A stretch of 64,000 nt of DNA from Alphaproteobacteria bacterium (GTDB taxonomy: Bacteria > Pseudomonadota > Alphaproteobacteria > UBA9219 > RFNS01): positions 50,356 through 114,355 of the forward strand of contig JBASFQ010000012.1 in NCBI GenBank assembly GCA_049653105.1, in the 5' to 3' direction. Within the stretch, counting starts at the first letter, position 1. Every line of letters begins with the position of its first letter. The position numbers and the translations under genes were made by a program. Below, piece by piece: positions 1,111-63,038 of this stretch. The notes beneath the pieces were generated by a model that did not search any database, was not told the origin of the DNA, and saw only the letters and a list, made by a program, of their open reading frames with translations.

Positions 1111-2133
1111 ATGGCAGTACGAGTTCGTGACGATATACGCGGCCTCTCCGGCGCCGAGAAAGCAGCGATCCTGATTCTCTCGCTTGGCGAAGAGCATGCG
1201 TCGCGTATTTTTTCGCACATGAATGACGATGAGATTAAAGAGCTTTCTCAGGTCATGGCCAATGTAGGAAATGTCAGCTCGAATCTGGTGGAGCGCCTGT
1301 TCGTCGAGTTTGCGGAGCAGATGTCCTCGACCGGATCATTAACCGGAACAATGGAATCGACCGAACGCCTGCTCACCAAGGTTTTAGATAAAAGTCGCGT
1401 GCAAAGCATCATGGAGGATATACGCGGTCCGGCTGGGCGCACGATGTGGGACAAACTTGCCAACGTGAATGAAGGTGTTTTGGCAAACTATCTTAAGAAC
1501 GAATATCCGCAAACCGTTGCGGTTGTCGTCTCGAAAATCAAGCCAGACCACGCCGCGCGCGTTCTCGCGCAGCTTCCCGAGAGTTTTGCGATGGAAGTCG
1601 TGACGCGGATGCTACGCATGGAATCGGTACAGAAAGACGTTCTCGATGATATAGAGCGCACACTACGCAACGAATTTATGAGCAACCTTGCGCGCACCAA
1701 TCGTCGTGATCCTCACGAAGTGATGGCGGAAATCTTCAACAACCTTGACCGCGCCAATGAAAGTAAGTTCCTGACTTCCCTCGAAGAACACAACCGCGAG
1801 GCATCGGAGAAGATCAAGGCATTGATGTTCACCTTCGACGATCTGGGCAAGTTGGCCGGACCAGCGATTCAGGCAATGATGCGTGTTCTTGACAAGGCAA
1901 AATTGCCTCTGGCGCTCAAGGGAACGACAGATACGATGCGCGACCTGTTTTTTAGCAACATGTCGGAACGTGCCGCAAAATTGCTGCGCGAAGATATACA
2001 GTCGTTAGGCCCTGTGCGGATGCGCGATATCGAAGAAGCGCAACAGCACCTTATTGCCGTCGCCAAGGATTTGGCGGCTAAAGGTGAAATTGTCATCAAT
2101 CAGGGCGGCGAAGAAGAAGAGATGGTGTATTAA
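1111..2133 (+). CDS. fliG: Flagellar motor switch protein FliG
   Basis: 340 aa with a typical FliG N-terminus ([21 protein letters not shown]) and a C-terminal torque-helix region. Gene order is fliF-fliG. Confidence 0.9.
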
Positions 2134-2858
2134 TGATGACAACAACAACCGTACAACCACCGACGCAAAAATTTATGTTCGACCGCACGTTCGACCCGCT
2201 CGCGCCGGTCGAAACCGGGCCGGAAAAGGTGCCTACATACACGCAGGCCGATCTGGACGCTGCCCGGCAATCATCTTTCAACGAAGGATTCGCACAAGGT
2301 GAACAGGCCGCCAACAAAGAACAAACGGCGCGCATTGCCGTCGTCGTGGAAAAAATCGACGGCATGATCGAAAAGCTTCTCCATGACGCCGCGCAACAAC
2401 AGCAGGAGCAACAGTCTGATATTCAAGAGCTGACTCTCGCAATTACTCACAAATTGCTCCCTGATTACATCGCCCGTCATGGCCTTAGCGAGATTGAAAT
2501 GATTTTGATGCAAGTGCTTAAAGAAATGGCGCGGGAACCGCGTCTTGTCGTGCGCGTGCATGACCAGATGCTGGATCCCTTGCAACAGGTTATGCAGGAT
2601 TTAACCGCGCGCGCCGCATATGCCGGCAAAGTTGTTTTGCTTGCCGACGACAAATTAGGCCCCAATGACTGCAAAGTTGAGTGGGCTGACGGCGGCACGG
2701 AACGTGATATCAACGTGATCTGGCATGCCATTGACCAAGCTGTAGGTCGCGGCAAGCTACCAACGCCCGGCGTATCACCTGCTGCGCCGCCATCGCCCGC
2801 GCCTGAATCCCCCCCTAATCCCAATCCACCATCTGCTGCTGAGGAGCGCTCCCCATGA
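2133..2858 (+). CDS. fliH: FliH-like flagellar assembly protein
   Basis: 241 aa between fliG and fliN. The start overlaps the fliG stop (ATGA). The central region is Gln/Glu-rich and coiled-coil-like, and the C-terminus is Pro-rich. Called by position and weak similarity to the FliH family. Confidence 0.5.
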   Translation: MMTTTTVQPPTQKFMFDRTFDPLAPVETGPEKVPTYTQADLDAARQSSFNEGFAQGEQAANKEQTARIAVVVEKIDGMIEKLLHDAAQQQQEQQSDIQELTLAITHKLLPDYIARHGLSEIEMILMQVLKEMAREPRLVVRVHDQMLDPLQQVMQDLTARAAYAGKVVLLADDKLGPNDCKVEWADGGTERDINVIWHAIDQAVGRGKLPTPGVSPAAPPSPAPESPPNPNPPSAAEERSP

Positions 2859-6734: not shown

Positions 6735-7708
6735 TGCGGCTTAAATCTTTCCACGGCGCTACGATTTCCGATGCCATGCGGCAGGTGCGCGACGCCTTTG
6801 GCGACGATGCCATCATCGTGGCCACACGGGACGACGATCAGGGTGGCGTGCGCGTTACCGCCGCCGTTGATGAAGCGCCGGGACAGGCCGTGGCATTGCC
6901 AGATATTGAAAGCGGCGAAGACATTATCGAACGAGTCTCCGACGCGCTTTTCCGTCATGGTGTTCACGCAGGGTTGGCCGAAAAATTGTTGGCCACGGCC
7001 ACGAATTTTGCCGAAGACGACCCTGTTATCGCCTTGGCCGCCGGATTCGACGCGCATATTCCTTTTCGCACGCCATCGGATGCCCCACGCCCAATTGTGC
7101 TTATTGGCCCGCCGGGAAGCGGCAAGACCTTGGCCGTGGCGAAACTCGCGACTGCGGCGCGGATTAAGGACAAGCCCCTGGCCGTTATTACGACCGATCT
7201 TGTACGCGCGGGCGGTGTTGACCAGCTTGCAGCCTATACGAATGTCATGAAAATCAAACTTTTGGAAATCGAGGAAGCGCAGGCTGCCGCCGATGCTGTC
7301 GCGGAAATGACGGCCAAGAACATCGTTCTGGTCGATACGGCCGGATGCAATCCCTTCGATCCCGCAGCGCGCGATGAGTTGCAAGCGCTGATACGCAAAA
7401 TCAACGGGGACATCGTCATGGCTCTTCCTTGCGGTCTGGACAGCGAAGACGGCATTGATCTGGCACAGACATTCAAAAAACTAGGCGCGACGCAACTGCT
7501 CTTTACCCGTGCCGATGTCACGCGCCGTTTTGGCAGCACCCTGAACATCGCCGGAGCCTCGGGTCTTGAACTGGCCTATTTGAGCCAGTCGGCCAATGTG
7601 ACTACACCACTTTTGACCATGAATCCGATCACGCTCGCGCGTTTTATTTTGGAACCACCCGCCGTGCAACAACGGAATGACCTGCCGCAAACCGGTACGC
7701 ACGCATAA
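6734..7708 (+). CDS. flhF: Flagellar biosynthesis SRP-type GTPase FlhF
   Basis: 324 aa with an SRP-GTPase-like P-loop (LIGPPGSGKT), DTAG and TRAD motifs. Located directly after flhA. Confidence 0.8.
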   Translation: MRLKSFHGATISDAMRQVRDAFGDDAIIVATRDDDQGGVRVTAAVDEAPGQAVALPDIESGEDIIERVSDALFRHGVHAGLAEKLLATATNFAEDDPVIALAAGFDAHIPFRTPSDAPRPIVLIGPPGSGKTLAVAKLATAARIKDKPLAVITTDLVRAGGVDQLAAYTNVMKIKLLEIEEAQAAADAVAEMTAKNIVLVDTAGCNPFDPAARDELQALIRKINGDIVMALPCGLDSEDGIDLAQTFKKLGATQLLFTRADVTRRFGSTLNIAGASGLELAYLSQSANVTTPLLTMNPITLARFILEPPAVQQRNDLPQTGTHA

Positions 7709-7719
7709 AGGAGCCTCTT

Positions 7720-8514
7720 ATGACCGAACCCATTCCCCTTAGCGGCACTGCGTCGCCTGCGGCGCAGCTTCGTGTTCCCAACCTTTACGCCGTCGCCAGC
7801 GGCAAAGGCGGCGTCGGCAAGACATGGTTTTCTATCACGCTCTGCCACGCTTTGGCAGCACAGGGTAAACGGGTTCTGCTTTTCGACGGCGATCTTGGTC
7901 TTGCCAATATTGATATCCAGCTTGGCCTTACACCCAAGAACGATCTTGGCGCTGTGGTTGAAAACAAAGTGACACTAGCCGGGGCCGTGACGCATTACGA
8001 GACAGGGAAATTCGATGTTCTGGCCGGACGTTCTGGCTCCGGCAATCTCGCAACAATGCCGACGCAGAAACTGAACGACCTGCGCACGGAACTAATTAAT
8101 CTGGCCAAGAGTTACGACCATGTCGTTATTGATCTTGGCGCGGGTGTTGATCGCGCCGTGCGCCATATGGCCGGACCGGCAGCAATTTGCTTCATCGTGG
8201 TAACGGACGAACCAACGTCACTCACTGATGCCTATGCCTTCGTAAAGTTAACGCGCGCCGCCAACCCGCGTGCCGATTTGCGGATTGTTGCTAATATGGC
8301 CGCCAACCAGACCGAAGGGTTACGCACCTATGATACTATTAAAAAAGCCTGCGCCAATTTTCTGCACTTTGAGCCGCCGTTGGCAGGTATTATCCGCCGT
8401 GACAATAAAGTGCGCGACGCAATCCGAGCCCAAACATCAATCATGGTGCGTTCGCCAGAAGCCGATGCGGCAAAAGACGTTGTTCATCTGGTCAACGAAA
8501 ATTTCGGTAAATAG
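7720..8514 (+). CDS. fleN: MinD/ParA-family ATPase FleN/FlhG (flagellar number regulator)
   Basis: 264 aa with a deviant Walker A (ASGKGGVGKTW). Located directly downstream of flhF, the canonical partner position. Confidence 0.75.
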   Translation: MTEPIPLSGTASPAAQLRVPNLYAVASGKGGVGKTWFSITLCHALAAQGKRVLLFDGDLGLANIDIQLGLTPKNDLGAVVENKVTLAGAVTHYETGKFDVLAGRSGSGNLATMPTQKLNDLRTELINLAKSYDHVVIDLGAGVDRAVRHMAGPAAICFIVVTDEPTSLTDAYAFVKLTRAANPRADLRIVANMAANQTEGLRTYDTIKKACANFLHFEPPLAGIIRRDNKVRDAIRAQTSIMVRSPEADAAKDVVHLVNENFGK

Positions 8515-56283: not shown

Positions 56284-56925
56284 CTACCTGTAAATCCAGA
56301 TCATGCTGGTAAAGCCGCTGCACACACCACCAGTGTGCGTCGCACAATTGACCGAGGAGCAGGTTCCTTTCAACGCCTCTTTCTTACATTCACCTTCCGA
56401 CGTCCAAACCTTGCCACGCAACAATTGCTCCGGATCAGTCGCCGGTCGCGCACGCTCTGGGCGTGATGGGCGGGCAGCATCAGGTGTCTTGGCCTGATTC
56501 TTGCCACCGAAAATTTTCGCGAAGAAACCGCCGCCTTCCTTGGCACTTTCCTGAGAACTTTCCTGTACCGGCACCGGTGGAGGCGCAATCTCGGCTGCCT
56601 TCGGCTGACCTGCTGTCTGGGGCTGTGCCCCTTCCTCAGACGTTTTGGACTGAGTCGGAGCGTCCATTTCCTTGGTGGCTGGAGTTGCAGCAGCCGGCAT
56701 GGCCTTAATCTTTGGCGCCGGTACAGCAGCCTGCGGCTTCACGGTCGGCTTCTTTACGCTCTTCTCTGCAATCGGCATCCAGGTCTTTGCGCTGTCGATA
56801 ACGCATTCGCGGCGTGTCGCGGTTTCGCAGTCATTTTGCGTTTTCCATTTTTGCGGCTCTGCAGCATCAGCGCCCTGGCATACGAGAAGTGCCAAGGCAG
56901 AAAGAAGCGTGATTCTCCGGGTCAT
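56284..56925 (-). CDS. Secreted Pro/Ala/Lys-rich, Cys-containing hypothetical protein inserted between nuoE and nuoF
   Basis: Start chosen at the signal peptide [21 protein letters not shown]; the ORF as drawn extends to 56970. It has Cys pairs at both ends and a low-complexity centre. Confidence 0.45.
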
Positions 56926-56974
56926 TGTCCACCCCCATCCTGGTCTGTCATATGAATATTGATTGCACACATGA

Positions 56975-57580
56975 TTATGCCTTCTTGTTTTTCAGACTTG
57001 TCGAGCCGGCCTGTGCACAGGAACCGCGCCTGCCCGTCAGCGAGCCCGGCGCCGGCTTTTTCCCGGCAGCAAGATCGTTGATCAGTTTTTCCATTGCCGC
57101 AGCGTCCAGGTCTTCATAATAATCGTCATTAATTTGCACCATCGGCGCATTAACGCATGCTCCCAGACACTCAACTTCAATCATTGAGAACTTTCCGTCA
57201 GGCGTCGTCTGTCCATGACCGATCCCCAATTTTTCACGACACACATGCTTGAGCGCATCCGAGCCGCGCAACCAGCACGGCGTGGTCGTGCAGAGTTGAA
57301 TGTAGTTTTCACCAACGGGCTGGCGGTTGAACATGGTGTAAAATGTCGCAACTTCATAAGCGCGAATGCGCGGCGTTTCCAACATATCGGCAACATAGTC
57401 CATTGCCGCACGCGGCAGCCAATTATTGTGTTGCGCCTGCGCCAGTTGCAGCAAAGGGATTAAAGCGCTTTGCGCCCGGCCTTCGGGATATCTGGCAATA
57501 ATCGCCTTGGCCTTGGCCAGATTCCCCGGCGTAAAGGCAAAGGCTTTCGGTTGTTCTATGGCAGCAGCGTTCGCGCTCAT
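56975..57580 (-). CDS. nuoE: NADH-quinone oxidoreductase subunit E (thioredoxin-like 2Fe-2S)
   Basis: 201 aa with the four-Cys pattern (CTTTPC...CLGACVNAP). Confidence 0.92.
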
Positions 57581-58794
57581 CTGTCGATTTCCCCAAACAC
57601 GACATCCATACTGCCGATAATCGCCACCGTATCAGCAAGCATGGAGCCTTTGCACATGAAATCCGTACCCTGCAAATGAGCGAAGCCCGGCGCGCGGATT
57701 TTGCAGCGATATGGTTTGTTCGTGCCATCGGCAACGACATAAACGCCGAACTCACCCTTCGGCGCCTCGACGGCCGTATAGGTTTCCCCTGCGGGAACAT
57801 GATATCCCTCGGTATAAAGTTTGAAATGGTGGATCAAAGCTTCCATCGACTGCTTCATTTCAGCACGCTTCGGCGGAGCGATTTTGTGATCATCAACCTT
57901 GATCGGCCCCGCAGGCAGCTCCTGCAAACATTGCCGCATGATTTTCAGTGCCTGTTTCATCTCCTCGATCCGCACCAAATAGCGCGCATAGCAGTCGCCC
58001 GTCAGCCCCACGGGCACATCAAACTGCATCCGGTCATAGACATCATAGGGCTGTGCCTTCCGTAAATCCCAAGGCACGTTACAGGCGCGCAGCATGGGCC
58101 CGGTAAAGCCCCAATCCAGCGCCTGTGCCTTTGTCACCACACCGATATCGACGGTGCGCTGCTTGAATATGCGGTTGTTGGTCAGCAGGGTTTCTAAATC
58201 AGCGAGAAATTTTGGAAAGCGCTCCGTCCATTCCCACATGTCGTTGGCCAGACCTTGGGGAAAATCCTGATGCACTCCGCCGGGACGGAAATAATTGGCA
58301 TGCATACGCGCGCCGGACACACGCTCATAAAATTCCATCAACTCTTCACGCTGTTCGAAACCCCACAGTGACGGCGTCACCGCACCGATATCGATGGCGA
58401 AAGTCGTGATGTTCAGAATATGATTAAGGATGCGCGTGACTTCAGAAAACAACACCCGGATATATTGCGCACGCAGTGGTGGCTTGACCCCCAGCAGCTT
58501 TTCGACCGCCAGCGCGAAGGCATGTTCCTGACACATCGGCGACACATAATCGAGCCGATCGAAATAGGGGATCGCCTGTAAATAGGTCTTATGCTCGATC
58601 AGCTTTTCCGTACCCCGGTGCAGCAAGCCGATATGCGGGTCGCACCGTTCAACGATCTCGCCATCCATTTCCAGAATCAAGCGCAGCACGCCGTGCGCCG
58701 CCGGATGCTGTGGCCCGAAATTCATCGTAAAGGGTCGCTGCGTCCTGCCATTCGGCAAGATTTTTTCTTCCATATCCGGGGCGATCTCGACCAT
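57577..58794 (-). CDS. nuoD: NADH-quinone oxidoreductase subunit D
   Basis: 405 aa, 49-kDa subunit family ([13 protein letters not shown]). Confidence 0.93.
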
Positions 58795-59447
58795 CAGCCA
58801 CCTGCCTTTGCCGCCTGCGGCGCAGGAGGCGGCACTGCTGCCTTCTCATCGCCGGGCAACTGAACGTCTGTCATGCCCTCCCAGGGGCTGAGATAATCAA
58901 AACTCCGGTAATCCTGTGGTAAGTGCACAGGTTCATAAACCACACGCTTTTGCTCTTCGTCATAGCGAACTTCGGTATATCCGGTCAGTGGGAAATCTTT
59001 CCGCAACGGATGCCCGTCAAATCCATAGTCAGTCAAAATACGCCTCAGGTCGGCATGTCCGGAGAAACTGACTCCGTATAAATCCCAGCATTCGCGCTCA
59101 AACCACCCGGCAGCACTGAAGACACCAGAAACGCTCGGCACCGGCGTATTTTCGTCCGTGGTCACCTTGACCCGCAACCGGGCATTCTGGCTTAAACTCA
59201 ACAGATGATAGACAACGTCAAATCGTTCCGGCCGTTGCGGGTAATCAACGCCGCAAATGTCGACCAGCAGCTTGCACTCAAAATCCAGCGCATCGCGCAA
59301 CCGCGTCAACACCGACACGATCCGGTCACGCACCACGGTGATGGTATATTCTCCCAGGCGTTCATGGTAATCCAGAAGCGCATCGCCCAAAGTCGTGCGG
59401 ATCAAGCGTTCCGGTGAATAGTCCGGCGTGGGGACAAGATCGCTCAT
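58794..59447 (-). CDS. nuoC: NADH-quinone oxidoreductase subunit C
   Basis: 217 aa, 30-kDa subunit family ([10 protein letters not shown]). Confidence 0.9.
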
Positions 59448-60085
59448 TGTTCAGTCATCCCTTCCAGATCTTCCAAGGCGACGGGATGCAACTTGGTCGT
59501 TCCAATCAAGGTTTCCAGCGCCAGTCGAAACGCCACATCCGACGCCAAAACTTCTTTCGTTCCGTTCAGAAACCTGCACAGCACCAGAGTCCCGCCTAAT
59601 ACCGCCTCAATCGGCGTCAGTTTGTTGGCGGCATAAATATCCAGAACCTGTTGTCGCGCAAAAGCTGCCCCGGCTATTGACCAAAACATGGGGCGCTGAT
59701 CCTCGCTCACCGTCAAAACCGGAATTTCCGCGTCTCCGGTATTGACACCGGCCGCAGTCGCCTCAAAAATTTCCTCGATGTCAGGAAACTGCGTCTCATC
59801 CATGCCGACTTCCTGAGCCGTATAGACCAGATAGTCCAGCACATTGCCGTCCTCGGCCTCGCAGATCAGTTCCCGCGCCGGATCGGAAAAGATAATGCCA
59901 CGGTCGCCGTAAAGCTGTGCCTCCGGAACTACCGCACGTAAAACCGCTTCTCCCAAGACAGCCGCCGTCGTGCAGATGAGCGTATTGGCATGAACGCCGC
60001 GTTCATCGCGATGCATGTCGAACATCGCCTGTTCGATGGCCTCGGCAGCGGATTTGATGCGGTCATCCATATCCGGGAGCATCAC
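59444..60085 (-). CDS. Acidic soluble hypothetical protein inserted between nuoB and nuoC
   Basis: 213 aa, Asp/Glu-rich, with no TM and no recognised motif. The start abuts the nuoB stop and the stop overlaps the nuoC start (ATGA), suggesting translational coupling within the operon. Confidence 0.5.
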
Positions 60086-60086
60086 G

Positions 60087-60623
60087 TTAACTCCGCCTGA
60101 TCACGCGATTGCCGCGCCGGATCTTGCGATGCAACTGCATAATGCCATACAGCAGCGCCTCTGCCGATGGCGGGCACCCCGGCACGTAAATATCCACGGG
60201 CACGATCCGGTCACAGCCGCGCACCACCGAATAAGAGTAATGGTAATAGCCGCCGCCGTTGGCGCAACTCCCCATCGAGATGACCCAACGCGGCTCTGGC
60301 ATCTGATCATAGACCTTGCGCAGTGCAGGTGCCATTTTATTGGTCAGCGTGCCGGCAACGATCATCACGTCGGACTGACGCGGTGACGCGCGCGGCATCA
60401 TGCCGAAACGGTCAAGATCATAACGGCTCATATAGACGTGAATCATTTCCACGCCGCAGCACGCCAAACCGAAGGTCATTGGCCACATCGAACCGGTACG
60501 CGCCCAGGCAAGAAGATCATCAACCTTGGTCAGAATAAAACCTTTATCCTGCACCTTTTCAGCCAGTTGCTTGGCAACCTGATTGGGAGTCAGGGGTGGC
60601 GCATGTGTCGTCGTCATTCCCAT
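60087..60623 (-). CDS. nuoB: NADH-quinone oxidoreductase subunit B
   Basis: The ORF extends to 60707; the likely start is at 60617-60623, just after the nuoA stop. The 4Fe-4S (N2) Cys motifs are present ([18 protein letters not shown]). Confidence 0.9.
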
Positions 60624-60994
60624 TCCAACGCGCCCTTCTTCCATTCGTAAATGAAACCTATCGTCAACACGCCCAAAAACGCCATCATGCTGCTGAACCC
60701 GACCCAACCCAGCGCCCCCAAGGTAATCGCCCAGGGAAACAGAAACGCGATCTCAAGATCGAAGATAATGAAGAGAATGCACACCAGATAAAAGCGCACA
60801 TCAAAGCGCCGCCGTGCATCGTCAAAAGCCTCGAACCCACATTCATAGGCAGAATTCTTTTCCGGATCAGGTTTCTGCTGCCCCACAACAAAAGACATCC
60901 CCACAGCTGCACAGGCAACGACAATGGCGATGCCGATGAAGAGGAGTACGGGAAAATATGCTGCGGCTAGATCAGGGGACATAGGTGGTATCAT
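60614..60994 (-). CDS. nuoA: NADH-quinone oxidoreductase subunit A
   Basis: The ORF extends to 61072; the likely start is [15 protein letters not shown] at 60994. Three TM helices; ND3 family (YECGFE). Confidence 0.85.
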
Positions 60995-61234: not shown

Positions 61235-61419
61235 CGCGCGACGGGACTTGAACCCCCAAAGGCCGAAGGCCGGTCACTTGACCTGTCGCGGGTTCAGGCT
61301 TCAGAACGGTAATCGGATTATGGCGCGAGCGACGGGACTTGAACCCCCAAAGGCCGAAGGCCGGTCACTTGACCTGTCGCGGGGTCAAGCTTCAGAATGG
61401 TAATCGGATTATGGCGCGA
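61235..61419 (-). repeat. Two tandem ~91-nt direct repeats, each ending with a copy of the last ~28 nt of tRNA-Asp (T-arm 3' strand, acceptor 3' strand and CCA)
   Basis: gacgggacttgaaccc... recurs at 61240, 61331 and 61422 (period 91), and the third copy is the real tRNA-Asp 3' end. The two full units differ at only a few positions. The 63-nt spacer contains perfect hairpins GGTCAagTGACC and GGCCttcGGCC. Confidence 0.75.
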
Positions 61420-61488
61420 GCGACGGGACTTGAACCCGCGACCTTCGGCGTGACAGGCCGACGCTCTAACCAACTGAGCTACGCCCGC
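61412..61488 (-). tRNA. tRNA-Asp (GTC)
   Basis: The reverse complement reads GCGGGCGTAGCTCAGTTGGTTAGAGCGTCGGCCTGTCACGCCGAAGGTCGCGGGTTCAAGTCCCGTCGCTCGCGCCA. This gives a cloverleaf with anticodon loop CUGUCAC and an encoded CCA. Confidence 0.9.
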
Positions 61489-61705: not shown

Positions 61706-62281
61706 TCATCCCTTTTGGACAAAAATATTTCTGAGCACCATTTTAAGAGCCACCACCGCTCCGAACATCATCGGGCGCAGTGCATCAGCCATCCGCGTTG
61801 CCGCCGAAAACCAGGAACTCTCTCTGATCGCGGCAAGAATACCGTCGCGATAGGCTCTGGCCAGCGCCATTTGTTGCCCAACCCAAGCATCGGCGCGCGC
61901 AGTCCAGGGATAAGTGGCAATGACCTTGGGGCGCGCCGCATGCCATGTCGTGTGTGCAAAATAGCCAAGGCTGATCTTGGCCATGACCGTCGCCAGTACT
62001 GCGGCCATCACCCCGTACCGCCCATAAATCAGCAGCACCGCAAACTTTGACACTTCCAGCAACCCCAGCGACAAAATTGAGACGGCCAACCCCAGATGTG
62101 GCGGCAACGCGGCGATTCCGGTTTTATACTTCTGTATAATGCTTTGCCGCATCAGCCATAGGGCCAGCCACTTTACTGGCCCGAACAGCAACGTGCCCAG
62201 AATGTAAAGAGTTCCGAGCACGCGCCCGATCCAGCGCAAACCCGGGTGGCGGTGTTCAGACGGCGTCAACTCTTCTTCCAT
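61706..62281 (-). CDS. Hypothetical polytopic membrane protein
   Basis: About 190 aa if it starts at MEEELTPSEH (62281); the ORF as drawn extends to 62392, overlapping the upstream gene. Four predicted TM helices. Confidence 0.35.
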   Translation of the reverse strand: MEEELTPSEHRHPGLRWIGRVLGTLYILGTLLFGPVKWLALWLMRQSIIQKYKTGIAALPPHLGLAVSILSLGLLEVSKFAVLLIYGRYGVMAAVLATVMAKISLGYFAHTTWHAARPKVIATYPWTARADAWVGQQMALARAYRDGILAAIRESSWFSAATRMADALRPMMFGAVVALKMVLRNIFVQKG

Positions 62282-62312
62282 GCAGCACAGTACCCGGAAT
62301 GTCACACCAAGA

Positions 62313-63038
62313 TCAACGGACTGCCAGGTGAATCTGCTGCCGCATGGAAGCACCAGAACGAACCACGCGTGTGGGCGCTTGCGGGGCCGCAAGAGCAGGC
62401 ACGGCGGTGTTTTGTGTGAGGCGCTCTGCCAGCATCCTCATGGACTGCCCCTGTAATTTCATTTTGATGGCAGGAGGAAGCAAAAGAGTCTGGGTTTCAT
62501 AAATATCAATTTTCGGCGCAGAAAATTTCTCGACAACCGGCGCTTGGATCGTGCCTGCTTCTTGCCATTCTTCGGCACGCAACCAGGACAATTTCGGCAT
62601 CAACACATGGCCGGATATCTGCAAGCGCGGCGCATGAAATCGCCGCAACTGTAATGCAACAATATTACCTGAAAACTGCAGAGAAGGTATCGACAGCTGG
62701 GCTGCCTCATTCACATTCAAGTCGCCAGCCCTGATTTGGCGTGGTGCCACATATTTTGTTAGGCTCTGGAAATTTGTTGCGCCTGCAACATCCTCTAGTG
62801 TCGAGAGGTCGATTTTCATCGCATGGGGCGCAATGATGTCCCCCTCGGCGCGTTTCAGGGCCGGTTCCAAAAAGTGTTCCGCACGTGACCAGATATGAGC
62901 TTTGACCACAGCGGGCAAACGTCCGGGCTCAAGCGCCGTGATTTCAATCGTCAACCCAGGATCAGCAGCTAAGTTACGCAATTTTCTGGTGGAAATGCCT
63001 TCATCAAGAATTACACACGTCGAGGCCATCATTGACAT
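62313..63038 (-). CDS. Hypothetical protein (no recognised family)
   Basis: 241 aa, soluble. It lies between hupB and the tRNA pair and is probably in an operon with the downstream membrane protein. Confidence 0.4.
   Translation of the reverse strand: MSMMASTCVILDEGISTRKLRNLAADPGLTIEITALEPGRLPAVVKAHIWSRAEHFLEPALKRAEGDIIAPHAMKIDLSTLEDVAGATNFQSLTKYVAPRQIRAGDLNVNEAAQLSIPSLQFSGNIVALQLRRFHAPRLQISGHVLMPKLSWLRAEEWQEAGTIQAPVVEKFSAPKIDIYETQTLLLPPAIKMKLQGQSMRMLAERLTQNTAVPALAAPQAPTRVVRSGASMRQQIHLAVR

Follow-up and report, generated by a model that had tools for sequence, protein, structure and literature searches.

Bacterial complex I consists of 14 core subunits, a number that has risen to about 45 in mitochondria. 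Some bacterial lineages have complex I subunits of their own, part of which are operon-encoded: Cj1575c and Cj1574c replace NuoE and NuoF in Campylobacter and Helicobacter, and Thermus has Nqo15 and Nqo16. Alphaproteobacterial nuo/nqo operons in addition carry extra reading frames, URF1-6 in Paracoccus and urf1-7 in Rhodobacter capsulatus, which have been known since the clusters were sequenced. To our knowledge, no gene between nuoB and nuoC has been described in either the Paracoccus or the Rhodobacter clusters, and our literature search found no paper on such a gene. Here we analyse a gene at exactly this position, designated orfX, in a 64,000-nucleotide (nt) stretch of contig JBASFQ010000012.1 from Alphaproteobacteria bacterium assembly GCA_049653105.1 (hereafter the window). 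We find that orfX is a real gene under purifying selection which occupies a fixed slot in the nuo operon of one uncultured lineage. We tentatively favour the view that it is a captured paralogue specialised as a lineage-specific accessory or assembly protein of complex I.

In several respects orfX resembles the alphaproteobacterial URFs: it is an extra, co-oriented and tightly packed open reading frame (ORF) of a complex I operon that does not belong to the core set. It differs from them in its location at the nuoB/nuoC junction and in matching no curated family; it is set apart by position, not by sequence comparison with the Paracoccus and Rhodobacter URFs. The Campylobacter/Helicobacter and Thermus proteins are unrelated to orfX in sequence and occupy other positions, and for them biochemical or structural proof exists. 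Likeness to NDUFAF3, NDUFAF4, NDUFAF2, NDUFS4, NDUFS6 and NDUFA12 is limited to the hypothesised role, that of a small soluble protein working on the NuoB/C/D (NDUFS7/S3/S2) module. The frame urf1 lies between nuoE and nuoF; its product carries membrane helices at the N-terminus and becomes part of the photosynthetic LH1-RC complex (PMC13066640), whereas the orfX product is predicted to be all-helical and cytoplasmic. A parallel is offered by CI-PIMT, a lineage-specific complex I subunit of Paracoccus denitrificans. This protein is a paralogue of a free methyltransferase, is catalytically dead and was seen bound to NDUFS3 (NuoC) in a 2.3 Å cryo-EM structure (PMC11522691). As we propose for orfX, it has diverged from a free-standing family, shed the family motifs and become confined to one lineage; it is also soluble and sits on the cytoplasmic side near NuoC. 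However, CI-PIMT has the methyltransferase fold and was observed in place, while the orfX product has no known fold and is a candidate partner of complex I. Moreover, orfX is operon-embedded, which is not reported for CI-PIMT in that study (PMC11522691). New, then, are the nuoB/nuoC junction, an unannotated family without known fold, and embedded copies that form a specialised branch of a free-standing family.

The window contains a complete nuo operon on the minus strand. An earlier note, made from the DNA sequence alone, had placed an ORF between nuoB and nuoC, and this was borne out: orfX (59444..60082, minus strand) is co-oriented and interleaved among the nuo genes, and its flanks were confirmed as nuoB (60087..60617, minus strand, 176 amino acids (aa); Pfam PF01058, Oxidored_q6, and NCBIfam NuoB) and nuoC (58794..59447, minus strand, 217 aa; Pfam PF00329, Complex1_30kDa, and NCBIfam NF004733). 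The same note read the protein as 213 aa from a GTG at 60085. On this strand the nuoB stop codon (TAA, 60089..60087) is followed by that in-frame GTG (60083..60085, minus strand) and then by an ATG at 60082. Because 10 of the 10 relatives in the family alignment begin with MLP at the ATG position, we assign orfX a length of 212 aa with ATG 60082 as its start; the GTG is probably unused. The gap behind nuoB thus measures 4 nt (or 1 nt with the GTG as start) instead of the zero previously suggested, but the proposed ATGA overlap with nuoC is present: the orfX stop (TGA, 59446..59444) and the nuoC start (ATG, 59447..59445) have four nucleotides in common (59444..59447, minus strand). A Shine-Dalgarno (SD)-like GGAG is located 8 nt before the orfX ATG, within the last nuoB codons (60091..60094, minus strand). 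No Rfam element was found at the locus, and within orfX only weak consensus matches to an internal promoter or terminator were detected, about as frequent as in shuffled sequence.

To place orfX in context, we compared 11 distinct genomes: the window, L001-3 (P0011), L004 (P0009), L005-7 (P0008), L015, L016, L017, L018/19 (P0013), L020 (P0004), L021 (P0002) and L022 (P0005). All are metagenomic, and L015, L016 and L017 are the three carriers among 185,579 GTDB species genomes. In 11/11 genomes orfX (49-87% identity) was located between nuoB and nuoC. Both junctions are conserved as well. Across the loci the gap from the nuoB stop to the orfX ATG is 1-8 nt, GGGG, GGAG or AGGGGG occupies the equivalent spot in the last nuoB codons of 10/10 related loci, and the ATGA overlap with nuoC occurs in 9/11 loci, with gaps of a few bases in the other two. 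The nuoB genes of the related loci are 85-94% identical to that of the window. Since the upstream neighbourhood varies between loci (lon-hupB-tRNA, groEL, purM-purN or polysaccharide genes), the conserved unit is the operon slot and not a larger island.

Our control was Skermanella sp. TT6, which is cultured and belongs to the Rhodospirillales. Its NuoC is 68% identical to that of the window, which is comparable to several orfX carriers, and it has the clpX-lon-hupB-tRNA-nuoA synteny in common with the window. In Skermanella, nuoC follows nuoB after 18 nt and the operon contains no URFs at all. This control, together with the presence of orfX in only 3 of the 185,579 species-representative genomes, agrees with the earlier statement that described nuo operons carry no gene between nuoB and nuoC. 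The C-terminus of NuoB differs from that of Skermanella by just two residues and was not informative as a lineage-specific docking mark. Rarity and confinement to uncultured bacteria limit the immediate reach of the finding, while its value as a test case is kept.

Other ORFs inserted into these same operons vary from locus to locus, whereas orfX is present in every one of the 11 genomes. We found a 211-aa lipoprotein-like ORF at the nuoC/nuoD junction of L005 (7304..7939), a 214-aa ORF at the nuoD/nuoE junction of L001 (8459..9103), a GIY-YIG nuclease gene after nuoF in L006 (8409..8747) and three ORFs of 96, 140 and 207 aa at the nuoE/nuoF junction of L018 (8948..10334). The nuoE/nuoF junction holds one to three ORFs in orfX-carrying operons. 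None of the inserts is related to orfX, and those of L005, L001, L006 and L018 are mutually unrelated. The nuo operon of this lineage seems unusually permissive to insertions. Separately, nuoB and nuoD each appear to be split by frameshifts in the metagenome-assembled genome (MAG) that carries P0011 (L001/L002, 5459..6028 and 7259..8462); each gene yielded two tblastn segments, and the nuoD call was in two parts of 278 and 127 aa. Either the assembly is in error or these core complex I genes are turning into pseudogenes.

A first protein search returned 11 clusters with 53-100% identity and lengths of 210-235 aa, all from metagenomes or MAGs labelled Alphaproteobacteria, and an exhaustive HMMER search against 1.84 billion representatives added the close clusters P0012 (54%) and P0013 (49%). 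We calculated ratios of non-synonymous to synonymous substitution (dN/dS) by the Nei-Gojobori method against the three closest loci (79-87% protein identity). For orfX the ratio was 0.05-0.12, compared to 0.06-0.09 for nuoC, 0.04-0.07 for nuoE and 0.02-0.05 for nuoB, nuoD and nuoF at the same three loci; all these ratios are approximate because dS was about 1 or more. The evolutionary rate of orfX is therefore about that of NuoC and NuoE and lies 3-5 times above that of NuoB, NuoD and NuoF. Conservation in 11 genomes and a dN/dS of 0.05-0.12 show that orfX is more than a chance ORF. Its GC content (0.556) and GC at third codon positions (GC3, 0.620) equal the values of the neighbouring nuo genes, which points to an old insertion; a recent horizontal transfer was ruled out on the same grounds.

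The earlier note further described the protein as soluble and strongly acidic. The window protein is indeed acidic (pI 4.21; 37 D+E versus 14 K+R), but this property weakens in deeper relatives (pI up to 5.97 in P0011) and strong acidity is not conserved across the clade. Solubility is likely, though not certain. Over 19 residues, the window protein reached at most 1.68 on the Kyte-Doolittle scale, the maxima of the family ran from 1.07 to 2.44 (1.2-2.0 in most members), and the most hydrophobic segments carry conserved charged E/R residues. A model built with AlphaFold2 (AF2) from an 11-sequence alignment predicts a compact globule of ten helices (mean pLDDT 82.8, pTM 0.85) with one disordered loop at residues 113-119. 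No signal peptide was found in orfX, which places the protein in the cytoplasm, on the side where the peripheral arm of complex I lies.

That the protein has no recognizable domain, as the note had also stated, stood up to our searches. At E<=1, no Pfam or NCBIfam family matched orfX, while the flanking genes matched Oxidored_q6 and Complex1_30kDa strongly. PADLOC gave no match and PHROGs gave noise only (E>=0.025). Foldseek searches with the model against PDB and BFVD returned nothing below E 0.4 (best BFVD match, E 0.43); PADLOC, PHROGs and BFVD thus lend no support to an identity as an anti-phage defence or phage protein. An hmmsearch with a 48-sequence profile against all PDB chain sequences, a set in which all complex I subunits and the assembly factors of solved structure are included, produced only three matches (E 0.28-0.68), none of them to complex I. 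On this evidence the predicted fold is not represented among solved structures.

The close relatives are one branch of a wider family. The exhaustive HMMER search recovered 60 representatives at E<=1e-3 and 15 at E<=1e-10, most of them aligned over about 190 of the 212 residues, and a profile search of a set of 5.8 billion proteins matched at least 16 proteins. About 45 of the 60 are distant relatives of about 200 aa with 23-34% identity over nearly the full length, and these, too, have no Pfam or NCBIfam match. At 50% identity, this unannotated alphaproteobacterial family comprises 60 clusters or more. Family-wide motifs are GVHA[EN]T..A.AA..GE..LR, P..L[TS][IV], R.. and LALE..G...P; in the distant relatives the motifs they have in common with the embedded group read GVHAET..A.AAL.GE..LRA, FPPLT[IV]P, R and LALEIM.G...M.PL. 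A further motif, HYPHEWSPNA, is carried by the distant relatives and was lost in the nuo-embedded group, which in turn has invariant residues of its own (the MLP N-terminus, H24, D26, H31, N33, C169 and R170).

The notion that homologues are always nuo-embedded holds for the close relatives (11/11 at 49-87% identity) and fails for the distant ones (0/7 at 23-34% identity). The seven readable contexts of the latter were rpmB|X|class I lysS in a Holosporales MAG; a position adjoining rpsB; one after a gene for an HlyC-like acyltransferase; one after TerD and ankyrin-repeat genes; one amid a BCCT transporter gene, two unassigned genes and a transposase gene; one near a dienelactone hydrolase gene; and a fused double domain. 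In the distant members P0016, P0021, P0031, P0039, P0041 and L023 (283..1734, 483 aa), two complete orfX-like domains are fused in tandem (434-483 aa), which suggests that single-domain members form dimers. In a midpoint-rooted neighbour-joining tree without support values, the embedded group is one clade on a long stem. In the simplest history, a free-standing gene was captured once between nuoB and nuoC and then passed on vertically while its sequence became specialized. The Holosporales MAG (L008/L009/L011) also contains, at 1921..2511, a stand-alone NuoE-like gene that is 55% identical to NuoE of the window; it lies between Hpt and NUDIX genes, about 3.5 kb from the orfX relative, and is not part of a nuo operon.

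What could such a protein do? The conserved gene, its fixed slot and the coupling signals at both ends together strongly imply that orfX is transcribed with nuo and expressed with complex I. Judging from the general behaviour of ATGA overlaps and of short gaps preceded by an SD motif, initiation at nuoC is probably linked to termination of orfX. The orfX product would then be synthesized in amounts similar to those of NuoB and NuoC. A role of orfX in complex I is plausible. We envisage that the ancestor of a single uncultured, Rhodospirillales-like lineage acquired a copy of a free-standing gene in the short spacer between nuoB and nuoC, and that this copy has since descended as a permanent additional member of the nuo operon. 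Ribosomes ending nuoB could re-initiate 4 nt downstream on orfX, whose SD motif is in the last nuoB codons, and those ending orfX could re-initiate on nuoC via the ATGA overlap, so that synthesis of the protein would accompany, and be roughly proportional to, that of NuoB, NuoC and NuoD. It might then act as an assembly chaperone or as a loosely bound supernumerary subunit on the cytoplasmic side of the NuoB/C/D module.

This explanation, a captured paralogue turned lineage-specific accessory or assembly protein, is the one we favour, and we hold it to be not quite an even chance. In its favour, every carrier has retained orfX while other inserts differ between relatives; an unrelated protein would be an expensive product at subunit level; the new invariant residues and the long stem are what is expected when a paralogue adapts to a new partner; and the predicted location is the cytoplasm, where the peripheral arm is assembled. 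If true, the locus would be a clean natural example of recruitment from a free-standing family, coupled between two genes of the quinone module and held under purifying selection throughout a deep clade, for a process that is still poorly documented: how bacterial lineages recruit extra complex I subunits and assembly factors. A more specific proposal, that orfX is a fifteenth bacterial complex I subunit or a dedicated assembly chaperone on the NuoB/NuoC/NuoD quinone module, with a new helical fold and recruited by operon insertion from the free-standing family, appears rather unlikely to us; it would represent an independent, operon-encoded parallel to the gain of supernumerary subunits en route to mitochondria.

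Several results weigh against a function in complex I. All embedded copies descend from one insertion, so the common slot counts as a single evolutionary event, and operon inertia could account for its fixity. The distant relatives lie outside nuo operons in all seven contexts, which argues that the ancestral function was not specific to complex I. The comparison with NDUFAF-type assembly factors proposed in the earlier note gave no likeness: neither the PDB profile search nor Foldseek revealed sequence or fold similarity to such factors or to complex I subunits of known structure. Besides the 14 core subunits, complex I purified from Paracoccus has only NDUFS4, NDUFS6, NDUFA12 and PIMT, and none of the described URFs (PMC11522691). 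The surface of its NuoC (NDUFS3) is acidic, not an obvious dock for an acidic protein. Finally, those nuo URFs that have been studied best do not belong to complex I: the nuoE/nuoF insert urf1 of Rhodovulum encodes protein-3h of the LH1-RC complex (PMC13066640).

Some of these observations fit a close rival, which we consider quite possible while leaning against it. Here orfX would keep the complex-I-independent job of the free-standing family and use the strong, constitutive nuo operon merely for expression; its slot would be fixed by the difficulty of removing or moving a gene in a tightly coupled essential operon, with no functional link. The seven contexts of the wider family unrelated to nuo, the acceptance of other, unrelated inserts by the operons of this lineage, the absence of similarity to complex I proteins and the precedent of urf1, which belongs to LH1-RC and not to complex I (PMC13066640), all speak for this possibility. 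However, it fits less well with retention of orfX in 11/11 genomes next to variable inserts, with coupling kept at both junctions, which implies costly synthesis at the level of a complex I subunit, and with a long stem and clade-specific invariant residues that arose after capture. If it were correct, orfX and urf1 would together mark alphaproteobacterial nuo operons as expression platforms for unrelated proteins, and would caution against assigning function from gene neighbourhood alone. Under either explanation, orfX defines an unannotated protein family.

It is improbable, in our view, that orfX is instead a regulator or membrane-peripheral factor, for example a protein that binds quinone or lipid, or one that inhibits or stabilizes complex I activity with no part in assembly; as such it might act as a homodimer. 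An artefact, be it a chance ORF, a decayed nuoB or nuoC fragment or the mis-assembled duplication raised in the earlier note, can be dismissed almost completely, since the same arrangement recurs at the relatives' loci in independent assemblies from NCBI, ENA, JGI and Logan, purifying selection on orfX is strong, the gene has no similarity to the NuoB or NuoC families, and the window holds no second copy.

The window operon opens with nuoA (60614..60994, minus strand; PF00507), whose stop codon overlaps the nuoB ATG, again as ATGA. Downstream of nuoC follow nuoD (57577..58794, minus strand, 405 aa; PF00346) and nuoE (56975..57580, minus strand; Pfam match), and nuoF to nuoN extend to about 45477. 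While nuoA-nuoE were identified by Pfam, nuoF-nuoN were assigned by ORF order and size and by tblastn of the nuoF ORF to annotated nuoF in related loci. Behind the operon come birA, coaX and an RNase J gene; upstream of it are lon, hupB, two hypothetical genes, tRNA-Val and tRNA-Asp.

A second ORF without assignment occupies the nuoE/nuoF junction of the window (56284..56970, minus strand). It has no Pfam or NCBIfam match and is unrelated to orfX. Its product comprises a signal-peptide-like N-terminal helix, a long linker rich in Pro, Ala, Lys and Gln, and a Cys-rich C-terminal domain. Overall identity to its counterparts in L004 and L016 is 37-40%, and the C-terminal domain is conserved in both. 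Position, size and the arrangement of head, linker and domain recall urf1 of Rhodobacter and Rhodovulum (PMC13066640), a likeness of layout.

Between hupB and tRNA-Val, two ORFs on the minus strand (61706..62392, 228 aa, hydrophobic; 62313..63038, 241 aa) matched no Pfam or NCBIfam family. In L020 (238 and 192 aa) and L005 (197 aa) this spot is taken by ORFs of similar size, likewise without matches; Skermanella has none there.

Just upstream of nuoA, the tRNA-Asp(GTC) gene (61412..61488, minus strand) is followed by two tandem 91-nt units (61326-61416 and 61235-61325) that are 96% identical. Each unit ends in a copy of the last ~21-26 nt of tRNA-Asp (GGGTTCAAGTCCCGTCGCTCGCGCCA), and the 3' end of this tRNA thus occurs three times with a spacing of 91 nt (61235..61488). 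Related loci, too, have an additional tRNA 3' end, that of tRNA-Asp in L020 (119 nt downstream) and that of tRNA-Val in L005 (86 nt downstream), whereas Skermanella has none. The repeated 3' ends in the window resemble the tRNA-linked repeats of E. coli tyrT.
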